From an uncultured archaeon (GTDB taxonomy: Archaea; Thermoproteota; Nitrososphaeria_A; Caldarchaeales; Calditenuaceae), in assembly GCA_937921685.1 (NCBI GenBank), contig CAKZUF010000020.1, positions 52-64,051 of the forward strand: DNA of 64,000 nt, written 5' to 3'. Under the pieces are notes generated by a model. It made no database searches. It was not told the DNA's origin and worked only from the letters and a program-made list of their open reading frames with translations. Both the position numbers and the translations under genes were made by a program. Below, one piece after another: positions 2 through 18,078 of this stretch. Each line of letters begins with the position of its first letter. Within the stretch, counting starts at the first letter, position 1.

Positions 2-1168
2 AGTACGCTCTTCTCTGCCTTAACTATGGTGGATGTTCCGATCGCGAATTATCCCTTCACTACTAAAAGTCCTAATAGGGGAGTGACTTATCTCCGGTTT
101 AACTGTGTCTGTAAAGAGCTTGGCGTTAAGGATAATCCCAGAAACTCGCTATGTGTGGATGGTGTGAGACTTATTCCCATCCAGATCATTGATTGCCCGG
201 GTATTGTTCCTCAGGCTCATCTGGGGAGGGGGTTGGGTCTCCAGTTCCTTGATGAGATTAGGCAGGCCAGCGCCTTGATTGTTGTTGCTGATGCATCGGG
301 TGGGACGGATCTTGAGGGCAACATTGTTGAGCCTGGGACCCAGGACCCCGTAGAGGATGTGAGGCTGGTTGAGAGGGAGCTGGCCGAGTGGCTTCTCGGC
401 ATTCTATCGAGGGAGTGGCCTAGAATCGCCCGGGCCGTAGAGGCTAAACAGGCCTCCCTGTCGGACGAGATTGCACGAGTATTCTCCGGGCTTGGAATTA
501 ATAGAGAGGATGTCGATGCCGCCATAGGTAAGTCGGAGTTAAACCCGGCTCATCCGACGGGGTGGAAACAAGAGGAGCTCCGCCTGTTTGTAAACGAGCT
601 GAGAAGGTTGTCGAAGCCTATAATAGTCGCTGCGAACAAGGCTGATGTGCCGGGGGCGCAGAAAGGGGTTAAAAGGCTTATCGAGGCAGGGTATGAGACT
701 ATTCCATGTAGCGCGGAGGCTGAGCGGGCGCTGAGAATAGCTGCTGAGCGGGGGCTGATAAGCTATAGGCCAGGGGATAAGTCGTTCAGGGTATTAGACG
801 ATTCTCGGCTAAGCCCAGCCCAGAAAAAAGCCCTCGACAGGCTTGCAGGCTTTATGGAGAGGAATGGTGGAACAGGCGTCCAAGACCTGATAGACAGAGT
901 CTATCTAGGCGTTTTAGGCTACATTCCGGTATTCCCTGTAGAGGACCCTGCGAGGTTGACGGATAGGAACGGAAACGTCCTCCCCGACGTGTATCTTCTA
1001 AAGCCGGGCTCAGGCCCCAGAGACTTGGCATACAAGATCCATACTGAACTAGGGGAGGCCTACCTCTACGCCATAGACGCTCGGAGAAAGCTTAAGCTTT
1101 CATCCGATTATAAGCTGAGGCCTGGCGATATAATCTCCATCGTCTCAGCGGCTAAGAGGGGTGCCTAG
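2..1168 (+). CDS. GTP1/OBG(DRG-like) family GTPase with C-terminal TGS domain; the N-terminus (G1 P-loop) lies upstream of the window
   Basis: The frame is open from base 2. G2 'YPFTT', G3 'DCPG', G4 'NKAD' and a TGS-like C-terminus are present, but no P-loop is visible, so the gene is 5'-truncated. Confidence 0.6.
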   Translation, partial: STLFSALTMVDVPIANYPFTTKSPNRGVTYLRFNCVCKELGVKDNPRNSLCVDGVRLIPIQIIDCPGIVPQAHLGRGLGLQFLDEIRQASALIVVADASGGTDLEGNIVEPGTQDPVEDVRLVERELAEWLLGILSREWPRIARAVEAKQASLSDEIARVFSGLGINREDVDAAIGKSELNPAHPTGWKQEELRLFVNELRRLSKPIIVAANKADVPGAQKGVKRLIEAGYETIPCSAEAERALRIAAERGLISYRPGDKSFRVLDDSRLSPAQKKALDRLAGFMERNGGTGVQDLIDRVYLGVLGYIPVFPVEDPARLTDRNGNVLPDVYLLKPGSGPRDLAYKIHTELGEAYLYAIDARRKLKLSSDYKLRPGDIISIVSAAKRGA

Positions 1169-3690
1169 AGGAACTCATCTAGCGTCCGCTTAACGGCCTT
1201 GCCTCCGCTGATAATCTCGTCGAAGTCCATGTCTAAGCTATCCAGCACCTGTTGAAAAACGCCCTTCAGATACTCGACGTAGGCTTCCACGTCGACTTGG
1301 TTTTTGTTGATCTCTATTCGTGGGTGTAGTGGTGTGACTCCCAGTCTGTCCTTGGTCTTAACGTATTGGATTATGTCGCCTGAGCCTACCTTGACGCCTA
1401 TAGCTGCCAGTTTCTGAGCAGCCTTGACATGGGGAGGTGTCGTCTTGGTGTACTGCTCGGGGGATTTAGATAGCATGACGCTGAAGGCGAGGTCTGAGAC
1501 CTCGAACTCCCTGTTTATCAGCTTGTTGTAACTCTCCCTAATCAGCTTCACCAAGTCTGCCTTGAACTTCTCGAAGTCTTCAGGCTTCTTGATCTGTTTC
1601 AACCCCTCTATCATCTGCTCGAAGAGGTGGTGGGCTAGGTTGAAGATGTGTCTCTTTTTACCCGTAAGCCCCTTAACATCTACCACCCCCTTAACAGTAA
1701 GGCCTAGGTAGTTCTTCTTTCTCTGTGAAAGGACAACGTATACGTATTCTTTATCCACTTCAAGGTCCAGGCCGAGGCTCTCGTCAGCCCATCTGATAAG
1801 TGTTCTGAGCATTTCCTCGTCATAGCCTCTTAGGAACAGCGAGTCGGTGTCACCATAGATTATAGTTCCGCCGAGCCCTCTCACCTTTTCAATCGTCTCT
1901 GAAAAGACGTATCTACCGATAGCGGCAGTGCTCTCTGCGAGCGGTGGACAGTATAGTGGGAACTCCTCGAATCCGAAGACGCCGTAACTGGCGTTGAGGA
2001 AAACTTTGAGAGCCTTCTGTATCACATCGTACCATATCCTCTTTTCCCTCGGTATCGTCGGGTCTGAGCTTCTGGGCTTGTAGATTCCCACCCGTATGTC
2101 TCTTAGAGAGCCTATAATCTGGCTCTGGAGGCCTCGCCTCTTCGTACAGACCCAGTGCCCGGTCTCAGGAACGACATTGGACCTGCACTCTTCATGCGGG
2201 CAGCGTATGGTTTCGTAGCTCAGGTTCCACCTCTTCAGCGCCGAGGGGTAGAGGGAGGCGAAGTCAAGCACCTTAACACCGAAGTGAATCCCGGGAATAG
2301 GTTCAACCACTATGGCTCCCCTATATTTCTTCCCCTCTATAATCGCCTTCGTAGTGGTCATGCCCTTCTCCTGCAGTATCTCCTCAGGCCTAGGGATCAG
2401 CCACCCCCTCCGCCTATGCTCAAAGTAAATGAGGTTCTTTATCCAGCCGGAGACACCGTGCCTGCAGAGGTCTTCAACGGGCAGCCGGCTAATCCGGCAC
2501 AAGACAAGGATTAGTCTGATGATGAGCCTCTCATTGTTTGATAGGAGCTCGTAGACTAGCAAGGCGTCTCCGAAGCTGTATGTCGCGAGCTCGCGGGGTG
2601 AGAGCTCCGAGATCGGCCTCTCGATCTGGATCTTCCCCCTCCCCAGCAGAGCCTGTGAAATGGCCTCAAGGGTATATTCTCGGTACTTGTTGTCGAAGGC
2701 GTAGACTTGTATTGACTTGTTTAAGAAGAAGCTGTAGAGGTCGATGTGCGCGGCGTTCTGGAATGTCGCTCCCTCCCTCCCGATCACGATCATGTTCCTG
2801 CCGCGGTCGACCCCAAGTCTCTTGGCCCTGTTATGGAGGTAGGGTAGGTCAAACTGGTCGCCGTTGAAGGTTGCGATGATGGCGTAGTTGGAGAGGGTGT
2901 CGAAGACGTCTCCGAGCATCTTTTCCTCGGAGTCATACACTGAGACCTTGAAACCCAGTCCAGATGTATCAAGGGAGAAGTCACCCCTCCTCAGCATGAA
3001 GACCTCTCTCCGGCCATCAGACCCGCAGATAGAAACGGCGATGACTGGGTCTTCGGCCTTTGAAGGGTCAGGGAGGCGTGTCGAGACTGGGCTAAAAACC
3101 TCGATGTCGAGGGCGCAGTAGGGGGGTTCAAGCTGCTCCGCCTCCATCACGGTGATCCAACTGGCAACCTCGCTCAGGTCTTCCTCACCTAGCTTTTTGA
3201 TCTGGGATGCCAGCTTCCTCGCCTCATCTAGGCCCAGGGTCGCTGGAGTGAGACCATCCCTTGAGACATAGTAAGGCATTCCGCATATCAGGCCCTTGTC
3301 GTATAGGTAGTTGAGGTGGTAGGGGATGTCTGATTCCCACGTCCTTATCTGCTCCCTGACCGAGTTCTTCCTACCACCAATGGTGAGCGGGTCCTTCGCA
3401 ACTATTTTTGTAAGTTTGACCTTTCGTAGTCTTAGGGCGTCGAACTTCTCCTCCTCTTTCACCTCAACTATGCTGTCCCTTATGTCCTTAAGCGCTTCTA
3501 AGACTTCTTGTGGCGAGAGGTCGGTGTAGCAGTAGGGGAGATGCCCCGAGTCGTCATACCTAATCTCTACTCTCCCGGTGTCCTGTCTCAGAAGTTTAAG
3601 ATACGCAAGCCCCTTCTCGCCATCATATCCCGCCGAAAGGAGGAGAAGCTTACTATCCACCCCCTCGCCCTGGTCCAGTCTCAATTGCAT
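1165..3690 (-). CDS. polB: Family B DNA polymerase
   Basis: 841 aa with exonuclease motif 'YCALDIEV' (Exo I DxE) and polymerase motif C 'IIYGDTDSLF'. Internal short ORFs on both strands are treated as spurious. Confidence 0.85.
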   Translation of the reverse strand: MQLRLDQGEGVDSKLLLLSAGYDGEKGLAYLKLLRQDTGRVEIRYDDSGHLPYCYTDLSPQEVLEALKDIRDSIVEVKEEEKFDALRLRKVKLTKIVAKDPLTIGGRKNSVREQIRTWESDIPYHLNYLYDKGLICGMPYYVSRDGLTPATLGLDEARKLASQIKKLGEEDLSEVASWITVMEAEQLEPPYCALDIEVFSPVSTRLPDPSKAEDPVIAVSICGSDGRREVFMLRRGDFSLDTSGLGFKVSVYDSEEKMLGDVFDTLSNYAIIATFNGDQFDLPYLHNRAKRLGVDRGRNMIVIGREGATFQNAAHIDLYSFFLNKSIQVYAFDNKYREYTLEAISQALLGRGKIQIERPISELSPRELATYSFGDALLVYELLSNNERLIIRLILVLCRISRLPVEDLCRHGVSGWIKNLIYFEHRRRGWLIPRPEEILQEKGMTTTKAIIEGKKYRGAIVVEPIPGIHFGVKVLDFASLYPSALKRWNLSYETIRCPHEECRSNVVPETGHWVCTKRRGLQSQIIGSLRDIRVGIYKPRSSDPTIPREKRIWYDVIQKALKVFLNASYGVFGFEEFPLYCPPLAESTAAIGRYVFSETIEKVRGLGGTIIYGDTDSLFLRGYDEEMLRTLIRWADESLGLDLEVDKEYVYVVLSQRKKNYLGLTVKGVVDVKGLTGKKRHIFNLAHHLFEQMIEGLKQIKKPEDFEKFKADLVKLIRESYNKLINREFEVSDLAFSVMLSKSPEQYTKTTPPHVKAAQKLAAIGVKVGSGDIIQYVKTKDRLGVTPLHPRIEINKNQVDVEAYVEYLKGVFQQVLDSLDMDFDEIISGGKAVKRTLDEFL

Positions 3691-10438: not shown

Positions 10439-10720
10439 ATGGCGGCCGAGATTGGAAGAATAGTGGTGAAGGTTGCGGGGCGCGACGCCGGTCTAAAAGG
10501 CGTTGTTGTGAACGTCGTAGGAGGCAACCGGGTACTAGTGACAGGGCCGCCGAGCCTCACAGGGCTCAGGAGGCGGAACGTAAACATCCTCCACATCCTG
10601 CCAACACAGTACAGAGTCGAGGTGAAGCGGGACGCGAGTGACGAGGAAGTTGTCAAGGCCCTCGAGGAGAGCGGGCTTATCGACTACATGAAGAGGAGGG
10701 CTGAGATATCAAGGTGGTAG
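10439..10720 (+). CDS. rpl14e: 50S ribosomal protein L14e
   Basis: KOW-type sequence 'EIGRIVVKVAGRDAGLKGVVV'. The start could instead be 10427. Confidence 0.8.
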   Translation: MAAEIGRIVVKVAGRDAGLKGVVVNVVGGNRVLVTGPPSLTGLRRRNVNILHILPTQYRVEVKRDASDEEVVKALEESGLIDYMKRRAEISRW

Positions 10721-11771
10721 GCATACTCTTGCGGCACAGCGTCACCCCTTGGCCCGCCGAGCGAGAATTCGTGACAATTAAGGAGGCGGAAACAGACCCT
10801 CGTTACGGTTCAAGACCTGAAGACCGCCCAATCCACGACCTCCTCAACTACGGCTACGTCCCCTTGGACAAGCCTCGCGGCCCCACCAGCGGCGAGATAA
10901 CCGAGCGGGTTAGAAGACTGCTGGGAGTTGAGAGGGCCGGGCACGGCGGGACCCTAGAGCCCCGATGGGTGGGGGAGATCCCGCGGTCTCCGGGCTGCTT
11001 CCAGTCCTACTAGGAAGCGCTACCAAAGCCTCCGCAGAAATCCACACCTACCCGAAGGAGTACGTCTGCCTACTTAGGCTCCACGGAGATGTCGACGACG
11101 ACGCCCTCGAATGGGGGCTCTCACAGTTCATTGGAGAGTTCTATCAGACTCCACCAGTAAGATCCAACGTGGCCAGACAGGTCAGGAAAAAGGAGCTGTT
11201 CGAGGCAGAGGTGCTGGAGAGGGATGGGCGAGACGTCCTCTTAAGAATGATCGTGAGCGGCGGCACATACGTCCGTAAGCTCTGCCACGACTTGGGACTG
11301 GTCTTGGGTGTTGGAGCCCACATGGTTGAGCTGAGGCGTGTACGGATAGGCCCTAAGTCCGAGAGGGAGGCGGTCACAATCCAGCAGCTCCAGCGCGCAG
11401 CCTGGCAGTTCAGGGAGTGCGGGGATGAGAAGGGACTGCGGAGCCTCATAAGACCCATCGAAGAGCTCCTCGAATACATACCTAGAATAGTAGTCCTCGA
11501 CTCCGCCGTCGACGCCATCTGCCATGGCGCACCCCTAGCCAAGCCCGGAGTCGCACAAGCCGAGACAAGAATATCCAGAGGCGCAACAATTGGAATCTAC
11601 ACACTCAAGGGCGAAATAGTCGCAATAGCCAAAGCACTAAAATCCACGGAAGAAATACTGAGAGAAGAAGGAATCATAGCTAAGACCGACAGAGTCTTCA
11701 TGACACGCGGCACCTATCCTCCAAGATGGGGGAAGGGAAAATCTAAAACAAGCCAGCACACAAGATATTAG
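10714..11771 (+). CDS. cbf5: tRNA/rRNA pseudouridine synthase Cbf5 (TruB family); the coding sequence is join(10714..10957,10978..11771), interrupted by a 20-nt BHB intron
   Basis: Two overlapping ORFs in different frames (10714..11013 and 10965..11771) together give the full Cbf5. Removing 20 nt restores the conserved 'GHGGTLDPAVSGLLPV' motif. Confidence 0.85.
10958..10977 (+). other. 20-nt bulge-helix-bulge (BHB) pre-mRNA intron in cbf5
   Basis: Outer helix GGGA(10948-51)/UCCC(10979-82); 3-nt bulges AGA/AGA; central helix CCCU(10952-55)/GGGG(10972-75). The exact boundary is ambiguous by +/-1 nt because of AG repeats. Confidence 0.7.
11736..11755 (+). promoter_or_regulatory. Candidate promoter element (A/T-rich TATA-like) for tRNA-Ser(GGA), lying inside the cbf5 3' end. 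It is duplicated at 42047..42066.
   Basis: The 20-nt sequence 'GGAAAATCTAAAACAAGCCA' occurs 19-20 nt upstream of both tRNA-Ser genes. Confidence 0.45.
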
Positions 11772-12195: not shown

Positions 12196-12636
12196 GTGGG
12201 GTTGGCTGACAGGGCCTCGCTCTACCTCGTCATGACACTTGCGTTGTTGGGTGCCGAGGAGGGTGTAGCATTCGCGAGGAAGGTTGGAGCAGACTTTTCG
12301 GACTGTGATTTAAAATCTCTAAAGGCTTCCAGCGTACGGATGGACTATGACCCGGTAACCCGTAGCCTGTTGCCGAAAGCCATATCTCAATTCTATCAAG
12401 AGGCAGGGTTCGAGGCTCTGGAAGAGCCGGACAGTCTTGTGACCATGTTCGCATTCATGGCGCAGCTTGCGAGACAGGGTGGCATAGACTCTCTAAAAAT
12501 ACAGCACAGATTTCTTAGAGTCCATCTAATCCCAACACTGGCTTATGCAGTAGAGGTATGCAAGGGATTGAAACCATTCCTACAGATAGTTTCAGAGGAT
12601 GCCGACGACCTCAAACAAATACTAACAAAAAAATAG
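12196..12636 (+). CDS. TorD/DmsD-family molybdoenzyme maturation chaperone (redox enzyme maturation protein)
   Basis: 146 aa. 'EEPDSLVTMFAFMAQL' matches the TorD 'EPxDH...EFM' core. It lies directly upstream of the Tat-dependent molybdoenzyme genes. Confidence 0.55.
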   Translation: MGLADRASLYLVMTLALLGAEEGVAFARKVGADFSDCDLKSLKASSVRMDYDPVTRSLLPKAISQFYQEAGFEALEEPDSLVTMFAFMAQLARQGGIDSLKIQHRFLRVHLIPTLAYAVEVCKGLKPFLQIVSEDADDLKQILTKK

Positions 12637-12662
12637 CATACATTGATGTAAAATTGCGTAAC

Positions 12663-12686
12663 TATACAAAATCATAAATTTGTATA
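12663..12686 (+). promoter_or_regulatory. Perfect 8-nt inverted repeat TATACAAA-N8-TTTGTATA in the A/T-rich leader of the molybdoenzyme operon; candidate operator overlapping the TATA region
   Basis: Seen directly in the sequence. A second inverted repeat, TTGTG-N3-CACAA, lies at 12698..12710. Confidence 0.35.
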
Positions 12687-12754
12687 AACTATAACTATTT
12701 GTGTGGCACAAGGTATTTAACACGGATTTACAAAGTCTTCTTGGTGCTAGATGA

Positions 12755-13471
12755 ATGAACAATAATCAGAATGATTGTTATAATTATGCTGTAACGCGGC
12801 GTGACTTTGTTAAAAAGCTGGTGGCCTCTGCTACTGTTTCACCCATAGTATTAGGGGGGTTCTCCGGGTCTGCTGAGGCGCGTGGTGGTCGCAGGTGGGC
12901 CATGTACATCGATGTTGCCAAGTGTTATGGCTGTATGGCTTGCGTGGCGGCATGTGCGGCTGAGAATAACGTGCCAATAGGATCTTTCAGGACTCGGGTG
13001 GAGAGACATACACTCTACGATGGTGTTACGGCATTTGTCCCAATGCAGTGTAACCACTGTGTAAACCCATCCTGCGTCGAGGCTTGCCCCACAGGTGCCA
13101 TGCACAAGGGTGAAGATGGCCTCATACTTCTAGATCCTAATCTCTGTATCGCGTGTGGCGCGTGTATTCAGGCCTGCCCCTACAAGGCTGTATTTTTCAA
13201 CCCCATCAAGGGCATTCCCGACAAATGTACATTCTGCAATCACAGGATATATCAGGGTAAACTACCAGCATGTGTGGAAGTTTGCCCGACTGGGGCCAGA
13301 GTGTTTGGGGACCTTAACGACCCCAACTCTGAAATAGCCAAAATCCTGGCTAGGACGCCGACGCAGAGGCTTGGGAGGGCTACCGGAAACGAGCCGCAGA
13401 TCTATTATAGAATGGCCACTGGGGTCGTGCCGGAGATATACTACTATAAAAGGGGGAGGGGGAGCGTATGA
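12755..13471 (+). CDS. Molybdoenzyme electron-transfer subunit with 4x[4Fe-4S] (DmsB/PsrB-like) and a Tat signal
   Basis: Twin-arginine motif 'TRRDFVKKLVASA' and four Cys clusters (CxxCxxCxxxC(P)). Its stop overlaps the start of the next gene (ATGA). Confidence 0.85.
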   Translation: MNNNQNDCYNYAVTRRDFVKKLVASATVSPIVLGGFSGSAEARGGRRWAMYIDVAKCYGCMACVAACAAENNVPIGSFRTRVERHTLYDGVTAFVPMQCNHCVNPSCVEACPTGAMHKGEDGLILLDPNLCIACGACIQACPYKAVFFNPIKGIPDKCTFCNHRIYQGKLPACVEVCPTGARVFGDLNDPNSEIAKILARTPTQRLGRATGNEPQIYYRMATGVVPEIYYYKRGRGSV

Positions 13472-16400
13472 GTGCGAAAATCGATAGGAGAGAGTGCATA
13501 AAGGGCGGCGTAGCAACGGCGTCGCTTGCGGCTCTCCTAGTGGGGAACTGGGAGGCTGTAGACAGAATCATAAGACCCAAGGGGGAAAACTACGGCCCAG
13601 ATCCGCTGTACGGCGAGAATGTCAGGTACGTAAATACGTCCTGTCTAGGTTGTAACGTTAGATGCGGCATCACGGCACGTGTAGTGAGATACGGCGACAC
13701 CGAAGTTGTGGAGAGGATTGAGGGCAATCCATACCATATCTACAACAGAGCAGTGTCTTTTGAGAAACAGACTGAGAGATACGCCCCCCTTCCATATCAC
13801 ACACCCATTAAGGAAGCGATAGAGAGGTGGAGCGGAACGATATGCGCTAGAGGTGTCGACGGCATACATTACGTTTACGACCCCTACAGAGTCATTAAGC
13901 CCTTGAGGAGGGCTGGCCCTAGGGGTAGCGGCAAGTGGAAAGTAATAACTTGGGACGAATTAATCAAATATGTAACCGATGGTTGCGAAATTCCGGAAAC
14001 TGGAGAAAAGCTACCTGGACTCAAGGAATTCTTCACCTATGGCAGGTTGAGAGACGCCGGTTTCGAAGACCCCAACAAAATACTGTCAGAGATGAAGAAA
14101 GACATTGATGCCATTATATCTGTGGCTAAAGATGGTAAAAAGACTTATGACGAGCTTGTGAAATCCATAGAAGATTTCAAAACCAAATGGAGTAAGATTC
14201 TAGGTGAGAAGGGGGTAAGACTTGAAGATATACTGATAGACCCGGACAGGCCTGAATTAGGTACCAAGGCCAACATGGTGGTTTGGCTTAGAGGTAGAGG
14301 TCAAGACAACGCAGATATATTCTACAGGAGGTGGTTGTTTGCTCTAGGAAGTGTCAACTGGGCAAGACATACCTCGTCATGTCAATTAGGTTACTATGCT
14401 GGCAACTACCTCTGGTCTGGCTACTACGACATAAATCCCGACCAGAGCGCCAAAGTTCTCATAATGGCTGGTACGGAGATGGCAAGGATTCACCCCGGGG
14501 CGACGGGTCAAGGTCTCCTTATAGAGAAAGCCGCCAACGGCGAGTTGAAAATCTACTGGGTCAACCCATTGGCTCCAAGGACTCCTGCTAGAGGCAACAT
14601 TATCTGGGTGCCGGTGAAGCCTGGTGAAGATGGTGCTCTGGCTTTCGCCATGATCAGGTGGATTCTGGAGAACAAGCGATATGATGAGGCACTCCACTCG
14701 GCGCCAAACGCAGAGGCTGCTAAGAAGCTAGGCTATCCATACAGCAGTAATGCCACCTGGCTAGTGATCGTGGAGGAGGGTCATCCAAGATTTGGCGAGT
14801 TTCTAAAAGCCAAAGACATAGGGCTGGAAGACTCCGACAAATACGTGGTGTGGACTGGTGAAGGGTTTGCAGTATACGACGCGGTTGACAAAGCTGAACT
14901 CCTCTTCGAAAGCCGTGTTACGTTGGCTACTGGAGAAGTTGTAACTGTGAAAACGCCGTTCAAGATCCTTTATGATGAATCCCTAAGTCATAGTTTTGAA
15001 GAATGGGTAGCAGTCGCAAGCCCCTACGAGCGCGGCACTCCGGAGTTTACAAACTATGCCAAGACTGTGGAAGCAATGATTAGGGACTTTGTGGATGCCG
15101 CACCCATGTCTGCAACGTATCTCCACAGGGGTGTCTCTATGCATCCAAACGGGGAATACATAGTTTGGGCATACAGGACTTTAGACATTCTTATCGGCAA
15201 CTTCCACAGGAAGGGAGGTTTGCTGGGGCGGCCATCCACGACGAGCTATAACTCGCACCTGTATGATCTCAGAGATTCTGGTTTTGGTCAGCCAGTGAGG
15301 TGGGGGCCACCGATAGACAGACACAAGTACAGCTATGAAGATACTCTAGAGTACTGGCTTAGAGTTAAGCAGGCTATAAAGGAGGGCAAGAGTGGTAAGG
15401 AAGCAGTCAAGGCCGCGTTTCCAACGAAGAGGCCTTGGTTCCCCAACACGCCTGAGGAGATATATTCAGAGTTATTTGCCGGGATTGCTGAAAGGTATCC
15501 ATACCCGATAGGTGTTTTGATACTCTTTTACGCAAACCCAGTCATATCTGCCAACTACGGCCTCAAGTTTGTTGAAGTGCTTAAAGACACCAAGAAACTA
15601 CCTCTGTTTATAGGAATTACAACGACGATAAACGAGACCTATCTATACGCCGACTTTATCGTGCCTGATACGACGTACTTGGAGACCGGGCTTAGCGGGG
15701 TCCAGTTCCTGTATGCGGGCGGGCTCGGATACGTCAGAGCCGAGTCGTGGCGTTCCCCCGTCATAATGCCTCTTACACAGCAGATAGGCACATGTCCAAA
15801 CGGACACCCAAGGTATGCCTCCATGTGGGAGTTCCTCATAGACGTGGCTAAGACTTTAAAGATGCCGGGCTACGGTGAAAAGGCGTTCCGAGGCGTCGCC
15901 GAGAAAAAGTATGAGGGGCAATGGTTTGCCATGCACTGTTTCTGGGAATACATCATGAGAGTATACGCCAACGGCGCGCTACATGCCAAAGACCTCAAAA
16001 TAATACCCGAGAACGTGCCGGACGAGGAGGTGCGGTTTGTGGAGAGGAACTACCCCATTGCACAGTTCAGAGACATACTGCCGCCAGAGGAGTGGAGGTA
16101 CGTTGCCTATGCACTCGCTAGGGGTGGCGTCTTTACGAGATATGAAGACTCTTTCGATGAGAAGGGTTGGTCAAAGAGGTCTGTGCCAGGAGATAAGATT
16201 CTCAAGCTTTGGAACGATAAGCTGGCTAAGACTCGGAATAGCGTTACTGGAGAGAAGTTCTATGGAGGGCCTAAATACTTCCCACCGGCAACCTATGCCC
16301 CCGCCGCTCAGGCGCCTGAGAAGAGGGACAAGTGGCTTCCAGGCACGCCCTTGAGACAGATCTACAGGAAGGAGGAGTGGCCGCTAACACACGTATTCAG

Positions 16401-17181
16401 CTCCGGGCCTCTATTCACAAAACACAGAAGCCAGTTCTACTACTGGCTGAAGCAAATGATGCCAGAGAACTTCGTGGTGCTGAATCCCTTGGACGCAGCT
16501 AAGGCCGGCGTAGAGACTGGAGACATTGTCAAGATGGAGACTCCTTGGGGGTCTCTAGAGGCTCCGGCAGTGGTATCTCCCCTAGTTGCGCCAGGAGTGC
16601 TGTATATTCCCTATGGGATGGGTAGGTGGGTTGAAACGGTTGTATCTAAGCCCAAATTTGAGGCGAGGGGTTTCGAGAACTTCACCCAAGAGCTTCCAGA
16701 AAAGGTGGAAATACCTGAAGAGGCTGTGAACCCTGTGAGACATCTGCCTGCGCTTGCGAAGAAAATATTGTTTACCAAGAGCCCGGCAGAGTATTATGAG
16801 GGTGGCCTATCAGTCGACAGGTGGAGATTCAGTGGTATCACATCAAATCCCATACAGGCTACAGATCCATCGCTGGACAACTGGCCGATGGTGAGTTGGA
16901 TAGGTGGAGGCCAAGCATACTTCGACACCCCGGCACGTGTAGTCAAGACTGGAAAGAGGCACGAATTCGAGGGGCTCAGCGTCGAGTTTCATGAATATCC
17001 ACTACCTGAACCACCAACTTCACAAATAGGCTTAAATCTCTGGAAGAGGTTCAAACATGAATTCACCAAACCATTCATCTATGCCGCATCGACTGTAGCC
17101 CTTATACTAGGGATAGCTCACATTGTGAAGGAGAGGAAGGCCAGAAAAGCCTCTATCAAGGAGGTGGAGAGAAATGGCTGA
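13468..17181 (+). CDS. Molybdopterin oxidoreductase catalytic subunit (DMSO reductase/CISM family), unusually long with a C-terminal TM helix; substrate unknown
   Basis: 1237 aa. Tat motif 'DRRECIKGGVATASLAALL', N-terminal FeS0 motif 'CLGCNVRCG', and a hydrophobic C-terminal segment 'FIYAASTVALILGIAHIV'. Confidence 0.75.
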   Translation: MSAKIDRRECIKGGVATASLAALLVGNWEAVDRIIRPKGENYGPDPLYGENVRYVNTSCLGCNVRCGITARVVRYGDTEVVERIEGNPYHIYNRAVSFEKQTERYAPLPYHTPIKEAIERWSGTICARGVDGIHYVYDPYRVIKPLRRAGPRGSGKWKVITWDELIKYVTDGCEIPETGEKLPGLKEFFTYGRLRDAGFEDPNKILSEMKKDIDAIISVAKDGKKTYDELVKSIEDFKTKWSKILGEKGVRLEDILIDPDRPELGTKANMVVWLRGRGQDNADIFYRRWLFALGSVNWARHTSSCQLGYYAGNYLWSGYYDINPDQSAKVLIMAGTEMARIHPGATGQGLLIEKAANGELKIYWVNPLAPRTPARGNIIWVPVKPGEDGALAFAMIRWILENKRYDEALHSAPNAEAAKKLGYPYSSNATWLVIVEEGHPRFGEFLKAKDIGLEDSDKYVVWTGEGFAVYDAVDKAELLFESRVTLATGEVVTVKTPFKILYDESLSHSFEEWVAVASPYERGTPEFTNYAKTVEAMIRDFVDAAPMSATYLHRGVSMHPNGEYIVWAYRTLDILIGNFHRKGGLLGRPSTTSYNSHLYDLRDSGFGQPVRWGPPIDRHKYSYEDTLEYWLRVKQAIKEGKSGKEAVKAAFPTKRPWFPNTPEEIYSELFAGIAERYPYPIGVLILFYANPVISANYGLKFVEVLKDTKKLPLFIGITTTINETYLYADFIVPDTTYLETGLSGVQFLYAGGLGYVRAESWRSPVIMPLTQQIGTCPNGHPRYASMWEFLIDVAKTLKMPGYGEKAFRGVAEKKYEGQWFAMHCFWEYIMRVYANGALHAKDLKIIPENVPDEEVRFVERNYPIAQFRDILPPEEWRYVAYALARGGVFTRYEDSFDEKGWSKRSVPGDKILKLWNDKLAKTRNSVTGEKFYGGPKYFPPATYAPAAQAPEKRDKWLPGTPLRQIYRKEEWPLTHVFSSGPLFTKHRSQFYYWLKQMMPENFVVLNPLDAAKAGVETGDIVKMETPWGSLEAPAVVSPLVAPGVLYIPYGMGRWVETVVSKPKFEARGFENFTQELPEKVEIPEEAVNPVRHLPALAKKILFTKSPAEYYEGGLSVDRWRFSGITSNPIQATDPSLDNWPMVSWIGGGQAYFDTPARVVKTGKRHEFEGLSVEFHEYPLPEPPTSQIGLNLWKRFKHEFTKPFIYAASTVALILGIAHIVKERKARKASIKEVERNG

Positions 17182-17839
17182 ACTAGAAAGGGTCGTCAGG
17201 TGGGATAGGCTCGCACGCGCGATACACTGGTTGTTTGTCGTAAGTGTCGGCATCGGAATAATAACAGGGTTGCCTACCTTAGATGGTGAAAGGTTTAATG
17301 CATTGATTTATCTGGTTGGAGGGCGAGAGCTACGGGCAGTTCTTCACCACTACTTCATTACAGCGGCGCTGAGCGCGGCTTTCGTCCTTATACTGATCAG
17401 GTTCGCTATAGTTGTCAGAAGGCCCCTTGAGGAGACTGGGGAAGAATGGGTACCTACAACCAAAGATTTCAAAGACTCACTAACAATAGCCCTGAACTGG
17501 CTCGGATTCAAAAGGCCGAGGCCGCCGATAGGATTCCACCACCCTCTAGAGAAATACTACATCCACATAATGCATCTTGGATTGCTGCTACTTGGTATAA
17601 GCGGGATACCGCTAGCATTCTTAGACGTAGGGCCGTACAGGTGGTTGCTCCTGCTGACCCACGACCTAGGACTGGTAATTCTGATACCTCCTCTCGTAGG
17701 ACACATAATGCTTGCTGTAAACCCTGTCAACTGGGAAACATTGAAAGCGGTATTTATCGATGGTAAAGTTTCAGTCGCGTGGGCTAAAAAACACCATCCA
17801 GCATGGAAGGTAACAATAACTACTAAAGAAGAAAAATAA
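17174..17839 (+). CDS. Di-haem cytochrome b membrane anchor (FdnI/HybB-like)
   Basis: 221 aa with about 5 TM helices and conserved His residues in the TM helices (HWLF, LHHYF, HIMHLG, VGHIM). It overlaps the catalytic subunit gene by 8 nt. Confidence 0.6.
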   Translation: MAELERVVRWDRLARAIHWLFVVSVGIGIITGLPTLDGERFNALIYLVGGRELRAVLHHYFITAALSAAFVLILIRFAIVVRRPLEETGEEWVPTTKDFKDSLTIALNWLGFKRPRPPIGFHHPLEKYYIHIMHLGLLLLGISGIPLAFLDVGPYRWLLLLTHDLGLVILIPPLVGHIMLAVNPVNWETLKAVFIDGKVSVAWAKKHHPAWKVTITTKEEK

Positions 17840-17985: not shown

Positions 17986-18078
17986 TGCGGCGGGCGGGAT
18001 TTGAACCCGCGACCCCCAGCGTGGCAGGCTTCCACGCAGCTTTGTGCTTGGTGTCCTACCAGGCTAGACTACCGCCGC
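17986..18078 (-). tRNA. tRNA-Gly(GCC) with a 19-nt intron (18030..18048) at non-canonical position 29/30; no encoded CCA
   Basis: Removing the intron gives a mature 74-nt tRNA: acceptor GCGGCGG/CCGCCGC, anticodon stem CCAGC/GCUGG, loop CUGCCAC, T-loop UUCAAAU. ORF 17985..18167 overlaps it and is spurious. Confidence 0.85.

Follow-up and report, generated by a model that had tools for sequence, protein, structure and literature searches.

The cbf5 gene of an archaeon of the Caldarchaeales is interrupted by 20 nt (10958..10977) that most probably form a bulge-helix-bulge (BHB) intron, removed from the pre-mRNA by the splicing endonuclease EndA, with Cbf5 restored by splicing. We place the probability of this reading at about 0.9. 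All positions refer to the window, the whole stretch of 64,000 nt of DNA analysed here, unless another locus is named. Cbf5 is a pseudouridine synthase of the TruB family and the catalytic subunit of the H/ACA pseudouridylation complex, and cbf5 is a universal and essential RNA-modification gene. The case rests on the exact register of the cut sites, on purifying selection acting on both exons, and on introns at the same codon in relatives. The initial annotation had taken the 20 nt as a BHB intron for the tRNA-splicing endonuclease rather than a frameshift, a reading that the register, the gapless Cbf5, selection and the relatives together make highly probable.

As initially described, the cbf5 region of the forward strand holds two overlapping ORFs in different frames (Table 1). 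The GTG start of the gene overlaps the stop of an L14e-like ORF upstream. The proposal that a 20-nt deletion fuses the two frames into the TruB motif holds as well: removal of 10958..10977 (AGCCCCGATGGGTGGGGGAG) produces a 1038-nt open frame that encodes a 345-aa Cbf5 with an unbroken GHGGTL|DPAVSG. Deletion of 10957..10976 gives the identical product because a G flanks both ends. The predicted spliced junction reads GGGACCCUAG|AUCCCGCG, or GGCGGGACCCTAG|ATCCCGCGGTCTCC in longer context. It falls inside the codon of the catalytic Asp (G|AU) of the TruB motif GTLD, a codon that becomes contiguous, and an Asp that takes its place in the motif, only after the 20 nt are taken out. No second copy of the intron was found in the window.

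The spliced protein contains the Pfam domains DKCLD (residues 17-62), TruB_N, TruB_C_2 and PUA. It scores 384.6 bits against NF003280, the NCBIfam equivalog model of Cbf5 (cut-off 242), and 368.4 bits against TIGR00425 (cut-off 238). Alignment with Cbf5 orthologs, one of the in-silico checks proposed with the initial annotation, is equally consistent with the spliced form. The PDB entries for Cbf5 match with E-values between 1e-86 and 1e-93. Among them, 2apo_A from M. jannaschii (E=1.8e-93) aligns with no gap across AGHGGTLDPAVSG, and GHGGTL|DPAVSG aligns gap-free with solved Cbf5 structures.

Table 1. Coordinates of cbf5, its predicted BHB elements and neighbouring features in the window, and of features at the cbf5 loci of other archaea.
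Feature	Position	Strand	Remarks
cbf5, upstream ORF	10714..11013	+	
cbf5, downstream ORF	10965..11771	+	
cbf5 exon 1	10714..10957	+	residues 1-81 and first base (G) of the catalytic Asp codon
20-nt BHB intron AGCCCCGAUGGGUGGGGGAG (predicted)	10958..10977	+	single copy in window; 16-22 nt homologues in relatives
cbf5 exon 2	10978..11771 (including stop codon)	+	AU completes the Asp codon; DPAVSG... through the PUA domain
Outer helix h, 5' strand GCGGGA	10946..10951	+	exon 1 Gly-Gly-Thr codons; minimum-energy fold; 6/6 paired in all Caldarchaeales relatives
Central helix H (4 bp), 5' strand CCCU	10952..10955	+	exon 1 Thr/Leu codons; minimum-energy fold; paired in 25/25 core sequences
Bulge 1, AGA	10956..10958	+	predicted 5' cut between G10957 and A10958 (rule of PMC2738675)
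Intronic inner hairpin h', GCCC/loop CGAU/GGGU	10959..10970 (stem 10959-62/10967-70)	+	minimum-energy fold
Central helix H, 3' strand GGGG	10972..10975	+	intron; minimum-energy fold
Bulge 2, AGA	10976..10978	+	predicted 3' cut between G10977 and A10978 (rule of PMC2738675)
Outer helix h, 3' strand UCCCGC	10979..10984	+	exon 2 Asp-Pro-Ala codons; minimum-energy fold
Gene cluster downstream of tRNA-Ser	12196..17839	+	
tRNA with 18-nt insertion	17986..18078	-	
LAGLIDADG_3 ORF, relative L002	4823..5872		family match
LAGLIDADG_3 ORF, relatives L006 and L008	3898..4644	-	family match
LAGLIDADG_3 ORF, relative L007	4208..4600	-	family match
13-nt insertion, Brockarchaeota and related MAGs L036, L040, L042, L043, L044, L069	about 3180-3215 each		same Asp codon
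12-nt insertion, ARMAN-5 Parvarchaeum L021	about 3189-3240		same phase
16-nt insertions, Parvarchaeota L039 and L045	about 2966-3020		same phase
Intronless cbf5, Wolframiiraptor L134 (GCA_003660635.1)	301..1317		

A further check proposed at the outset, folding of 10940..10990, returned the BHB as the minimum-energy structure in RNAfold. The same fold is obtained in a 131-nt context (10900..11030) and in the 39-nt core. Two 3-nt bulges lie on opposite strands at the exon-intron borders with a 4-bp helix between them. This central helix, CCCU/GGGG, includes one U-G pair, and G10971 is left unpaired directly after the inner hairpin. The structure drawn in the initial annotation is this same BHB, although it gave the outer helix as its inner 4 bp instead of 6 and did not mention G10971. 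In cbf5 introns, cleavage occurs between the second and third residues of each bulge (PMC2738675). Applied here, it places both cuts as AG|A, delimits exactly 10958..10977, restores the frame and leaves Cbf5 uninterrupted.

Folding energy by itself does not set the motif apart. Compared with shuffles, the folding energy gives z=-0.77 for the 51-nt context and z=-2.0 for the 39-nt core, and the z-scores of the 51-nt and 131-nt contexts are not significant. The window was also scanned for the pattern of helix, 3-nt bulge, 4-bp helix, 3-nt bulge and helix, with dinucleotide shuffles as controls. With a 6-bp outer helix, 58 (+) and 63 (-) patterns were found against 58 expected per strand; with a 4-bp outer helix, the two strands gave 644 and 598 against 680 expected. 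A BHB-like pattern by itself is thus at chance level in the window and is not used as evidence. A filter for BHB-like motifs that join two frames of at least 60 codons was unspecific as well, passing 18 candidates per strand, mostly at gene boundaries. The exact placement of both cut sites so that the frame is restored has, from the scan densities, a chance of about 1e-5 to 1e-4 per site.

The nearest relatives of this Cbf5 belong to the Caldarchaeales/Calditenuaceae ('Aigarchaeota', phylum Nitrososphaerota) and not to the Crenarchaeota, to which the initial annotation had essentially confined such introns. All best protein matches are cut to about 262 aa. An exact-sequence search for the 268-aa ORF of the window gave no identical entry, and its closest match is that of relative L010, with 94% amino acid identity. 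On the contigs of these relatives the same gene order is seen: SecY, an EMC3/TMCO1-like protein, L34e, an opposite-strand cmk, L14e and then cbf5. Their cbf5 is called as two ORFs, a separate DKCLD ORF and a 262-268-aa 'Cbf5' without its N-terminus; a pseudogene call by automated annotation had been anticipated, whereas these assemblies carry two ORFs and no pseudogene flag.

Further relatives came from a scan that took one genome per species. The 10 distinct sequences from Caldarchaeales relatives all carry an intron in this codon and in the same phase, with lengths of 16, 17, 19, 20 or 22 nt, and no intronless allele of the window's junction was found among the fetched loci. All 10 sequences pair the outer helix at 6/6 and the central helix at 4/4 positions, and the BHB core is the minimum-energy structure in most of them. 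The stem of the inner hairpin is kept in the closest relatives while its loops differ; some relatives lack the hairpin. Relative L005 has the central helix CCUU/GAGG in place of CCCU/GGGG: CUA has become UUA in the exon, which is synonymous, and GGGG has become GAGG in the intron, so that U-A replaces C-G in a compensatory way.

In the proposed course of events, cbf5 would be transcribed as a pre-mRNA that carries the 20-nt intron within the catalytic aspartate codon, GAU. Exon and intron bases would fold into a canonical hBHBh' structure, with a 6-bp exon-exon helix, AGA bulges, exon CCCU paired to intron GGGG, and the hairpin. EndA, the archaeal splicing endonuclease, would then cut each bulge behind its second base, and an RtcB-type ligase would join ...CUAG to AUCCC..., recreating GAU and the 345-aa protein. 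We infer cleavage and ligation from published work in Sulfolobales and Desulfurococcales, where cDNA and in-vitro EndA data cover an intron at this very site. The aigarchaeon C. subterraneum is reported to possess 13 tRNAs with BHB introns and a heterotetrameric EndA (PMC3082918). Among the 10 ORFs neighbouring cbf5 in the window, an ORF scan found neither EndA nor RtcB.

Expression of Cbf5 without RNA splicing, either by programmed ribosomal frameshifting or bypass over the 20 nt or as two separate polypeptides, is highly unlikely. Such a scheme could draw on an in-frame ATG (10965) within the intron, which gene callers use, and on the complete DKCLD domain of the N-terminal ORF. The intron lengths found in relatives differ modulo 3, however, so that no single shift direction would serve, and frameshifting would add 5-7 residues to the GTLD active-site loop. 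Nor is the start of the C-terminal fragment conserved: L005 lacks a start in the exon 2 frame near the junction, and its called gene begins after the catalytic Asp. At the same site in Crenarchaeota, cDNA shows splicing (PMC2738675). A search for take-off and landing codons suited to translational bypass returned no frame-changing match, the sole repeated codon pair, GAG...GAG, being in the same frame.

A frameshift mutation that left cbf5 a pseudogene, or a pair of decaying ORFs, would fit what a gene caller sees, namely just two overlapping frames, and the 262-268-aa truncated products that databases hold for relatives. Against this, both exons are under strong purifying selection. Compared with relatives at dS of 0.4-2, dN/dS is 0.08-0.14 for exon 1 and 0.06-0.15 for exon 2. 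The interruption of the same codon in 10 distinct sequences, at the various lengths given above, likewise argues against decay, as does the complete spliced ORF of 330-350 aa at every intron-bearing locus, with no other stops or shifts. The probability of a pseudogene is accordingly very small. That of a sequencing or assembly artefact is negligible: nothing specific speaks for one, and assemblies made independently by different groups from different samples carry homologous insertions at the same site; selection, complete spliced ORFs and the comparison with relatives exclude both.

An EndA-spliced intron in cbf5 has precedents. In the literature, the cbf5 intron is confined to Desulfurococcales and Sulfolobales, measures 16-44 bp, disrupts the codon of a catalytic residue, and is stated to be absent from Thermoproteales, Thaumarchaeota and Korarchaeum. 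Its proposed origin is a single gain in the common ancestor of these two orders where it occurs. In-vitro cleavage by EndA has been published for the crenarchaeal intron. Work by Watanabe in 2002 and Yoshinari in 2006 reportedly also deals with this pre-mRNA intron of Sulfolobales and Desulfurococcales. Sequencing of cDNA shows splicing at the same site in Crenarchaeota (Yokobori 2009, PMC2738675), and published evidence of splicing is limited to Sulfolobus, Aeropyrum, Desulfurococcus, Staphylothermus, Acidianus and Ignisphaera (PMC2738675).

Sulfolobales-like metagenome loci were retrieved with a fragment of S. solfataricus Cbf5 taken from the supplement of that paper. Their introns are 19-34 nt long, with identical phase in 16 distinct loci. 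The window intron shares with the crenarchaeal one the gene, the catalytic Asp codon, the phase (G|AY) and the cut rule. Its 20 nt fall within the published 16-44 nt, so that it is not the unusually compact copy it was first taken for. The exon context is GGGACCCUAG|AYCC in the Sulfolobales-like loci and GGGACCCUAG|AUCC in the window, and the intron ends are similar (AGCCC...GGGYGGGGAG). The outer helix differs: it is canonical in the window (6/6) and relaxed in the crenarchaeal-like loci (2-4/6), whose BHBs the literature calls 'unconventional' or relaxed. The initial impression of an unusually symmetric BHB is therefore a fair one. The host differs too, being a member of the Caldarchaeales ('Aigarchaeota', Nitrososphaerota), and splicing, shown by cDNA and in-vitro cleavage for the crenarchaeal intron, is predicted for that of the window. 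Judged by these shared features, the window intron is of the same kind as the crenarchaeal cbf5 intron, with a more canonical BHB and in a new lineage.

With the BHB introns of archaeal tRNA and rRNA, the window intron shares the hBHBh' geometry, 3-nt bulges, 4-bp helix and symmetric cuts, and the same enzymes (EndA, RtcB) are presumed to act on it. Unlike in those introns, the cbf5 substrate is an mRNA whose codons form the helices, and the same bases are therefore under constraint from both the protein sequence and the pairing. The BHB intron of HVO_1309 in Haloferax volcanii is likewise an EndA substrate in an mRNA, but it lies in the 5' UTR, outside the coding frame, of an unrelated gene (PMC7714728).

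Insertions in cbf5 extend beyond these groups, which considerably broadens their known range. Brockarchaeota and related MAGs carry 13 nt in the same Asp codon (GGGACCCUUG|AAGAAAUGGGGAG|AUCCC), with outer and central helices and both bulges; there is no inner helix, and the sequence folds as a BHB core. Within the DPANN, ARMAN-5 Parvarchaeum has a 12-nt insertion and two other Parvarchaeota have 16-nt insertions, all in the same phase; in the latter two, tblastn matched exon 2 only. The central helix of the Parvarchaeota is CUUU/GAAG or CUUU/AAAG, its intron bases covarying with AT-rich Thr-Leu codons. In Wolframiiraptor, cbf5 is intronless and reads contiguously GGG ACT TTA GAT CCA. This empty site means that intron-bearing and intronless lineages coexist within Caldarchaeales.

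In a rough neighbour-joining tree, bootstrapped by a distance method, the Cbf5 clade of the window (bootstrap 99) is sister (83) to the intronless Cbf5 of Nitrososphaerota and Wolframiiraptor, and the crenarchaeal intron clade is separate from it (92). Deep nodes are not resolved, so the tree decides neither for one ancient gain nor for several gains. The searchable literature, which is not exhaustive, yielded no report of a cbf5 intron outside Desulfurococcales and Sulfolobales and no paper that ties one to Aigarchaeota, Thaumarchaeota, Brockarchaeota, Micrarchaeota or ARMAN; nothing of relevance was found in PMC3608112. We give even odds that a distribution of the cbf5 intron over at least four deep lineages (Sulfolobales/Desulfurococcales, Caldarchaeales, Brockarchaeota and Parvarchaeota), with intronless sisters such as Wolframiiraptor between them, is both real and previously unreported. 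On this reading, the introns would be a single element, or would share an insertion site that is used again and again, always splitting the Asp codon in the same phase. If so, the intron would be far older than the proposed gain in the Desulfurococcales and Sulfolobales ancestor and lost repeatedly, or site-specific re-insertion or transfer of BHB introns into a protein gene would be possible.

Covariation was assessed on 25 distinct core sequences pooled from all intron-bearing lineages. The central helix is paired in all of them, and two of its pairs have changed on both sides (C-G to U-A). None of 500 shuffles reached the covariation score, a comparison that overstates significance because the sequences are related; controls with a slid register all fell below the observed score. 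Intron-bearing genes keep the wobble bases that the helices require (GGG, ACC/ACU, GAU, CCC), whereas 31 intronless archaeal cbf5 genes show an outer complementarity of 1-4/6 and never use ACC for this Thr.

The outermost BHB pair (10946/10984 in the window) is G-C in Caldarchaeales and C-G in Brockarchaeota, and the protein residues swap with it, from GHGGTLDPAV to GHAGTLDPGV. This RNA pair and two amino acid positions appear, from the sequences compared, to change together.

The practical consequence concerns annotation. An essential, universal gene is mis-called across a whole order, where the assemblies of relatives list a DKCLD stub and a 262-268-aa 'Cbf5', and such calls matter to marker-gene and completeness analyses. 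On the evolutionary side, the cbf5 intron is the only well-studied intron of an archaeal protein gene and had been taken to have arisen once; the Caldarchaeales copy reopens the question of when and how it arose. Together, the introns of Caldarchaeales, Brockarchaeota and Parvarchaeota offer a larger comparative set on the question of whether BHB introns move. Finally, the hBHBh' structure of the window is built largely from codons, with Gly-Gly pairing with Pro-Ala, and provides a clean case of selection on RNA structure at synonymous sites, possibly also at two amino acid positions.

Several observations concern the surroundings of cbf5. Several relatives have, some 0.1 to 1 kb downstream of the gene, ORFs that match the LAGLIDADG_3 homing-endonuclease family (Table 1); the window has a tRNA-Ser and a different gene set in that place. 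Another tRNA of the window, on the reverse strand, contains an 18-nt insertion and has the lowest Rfam score of the four tRNAs (49 bits). ARAGORN with intron search reads it as tRNA-Gly(GCC) with a non-canonical intron beside the anticodon stem, and without intron search as tRNA-Leu(CAA); no strict BHB was found around the insertion. The cluster downstream of the tRNA-Ser encodes a TorD/NarJ-like chaperone (a weak match, below the Pfam cut-off) and a 4Fe-4S dicluster protein, followed by ORFs of 1237 and 221 aa, and looks like a molybdopterin oxidoreductase operon.
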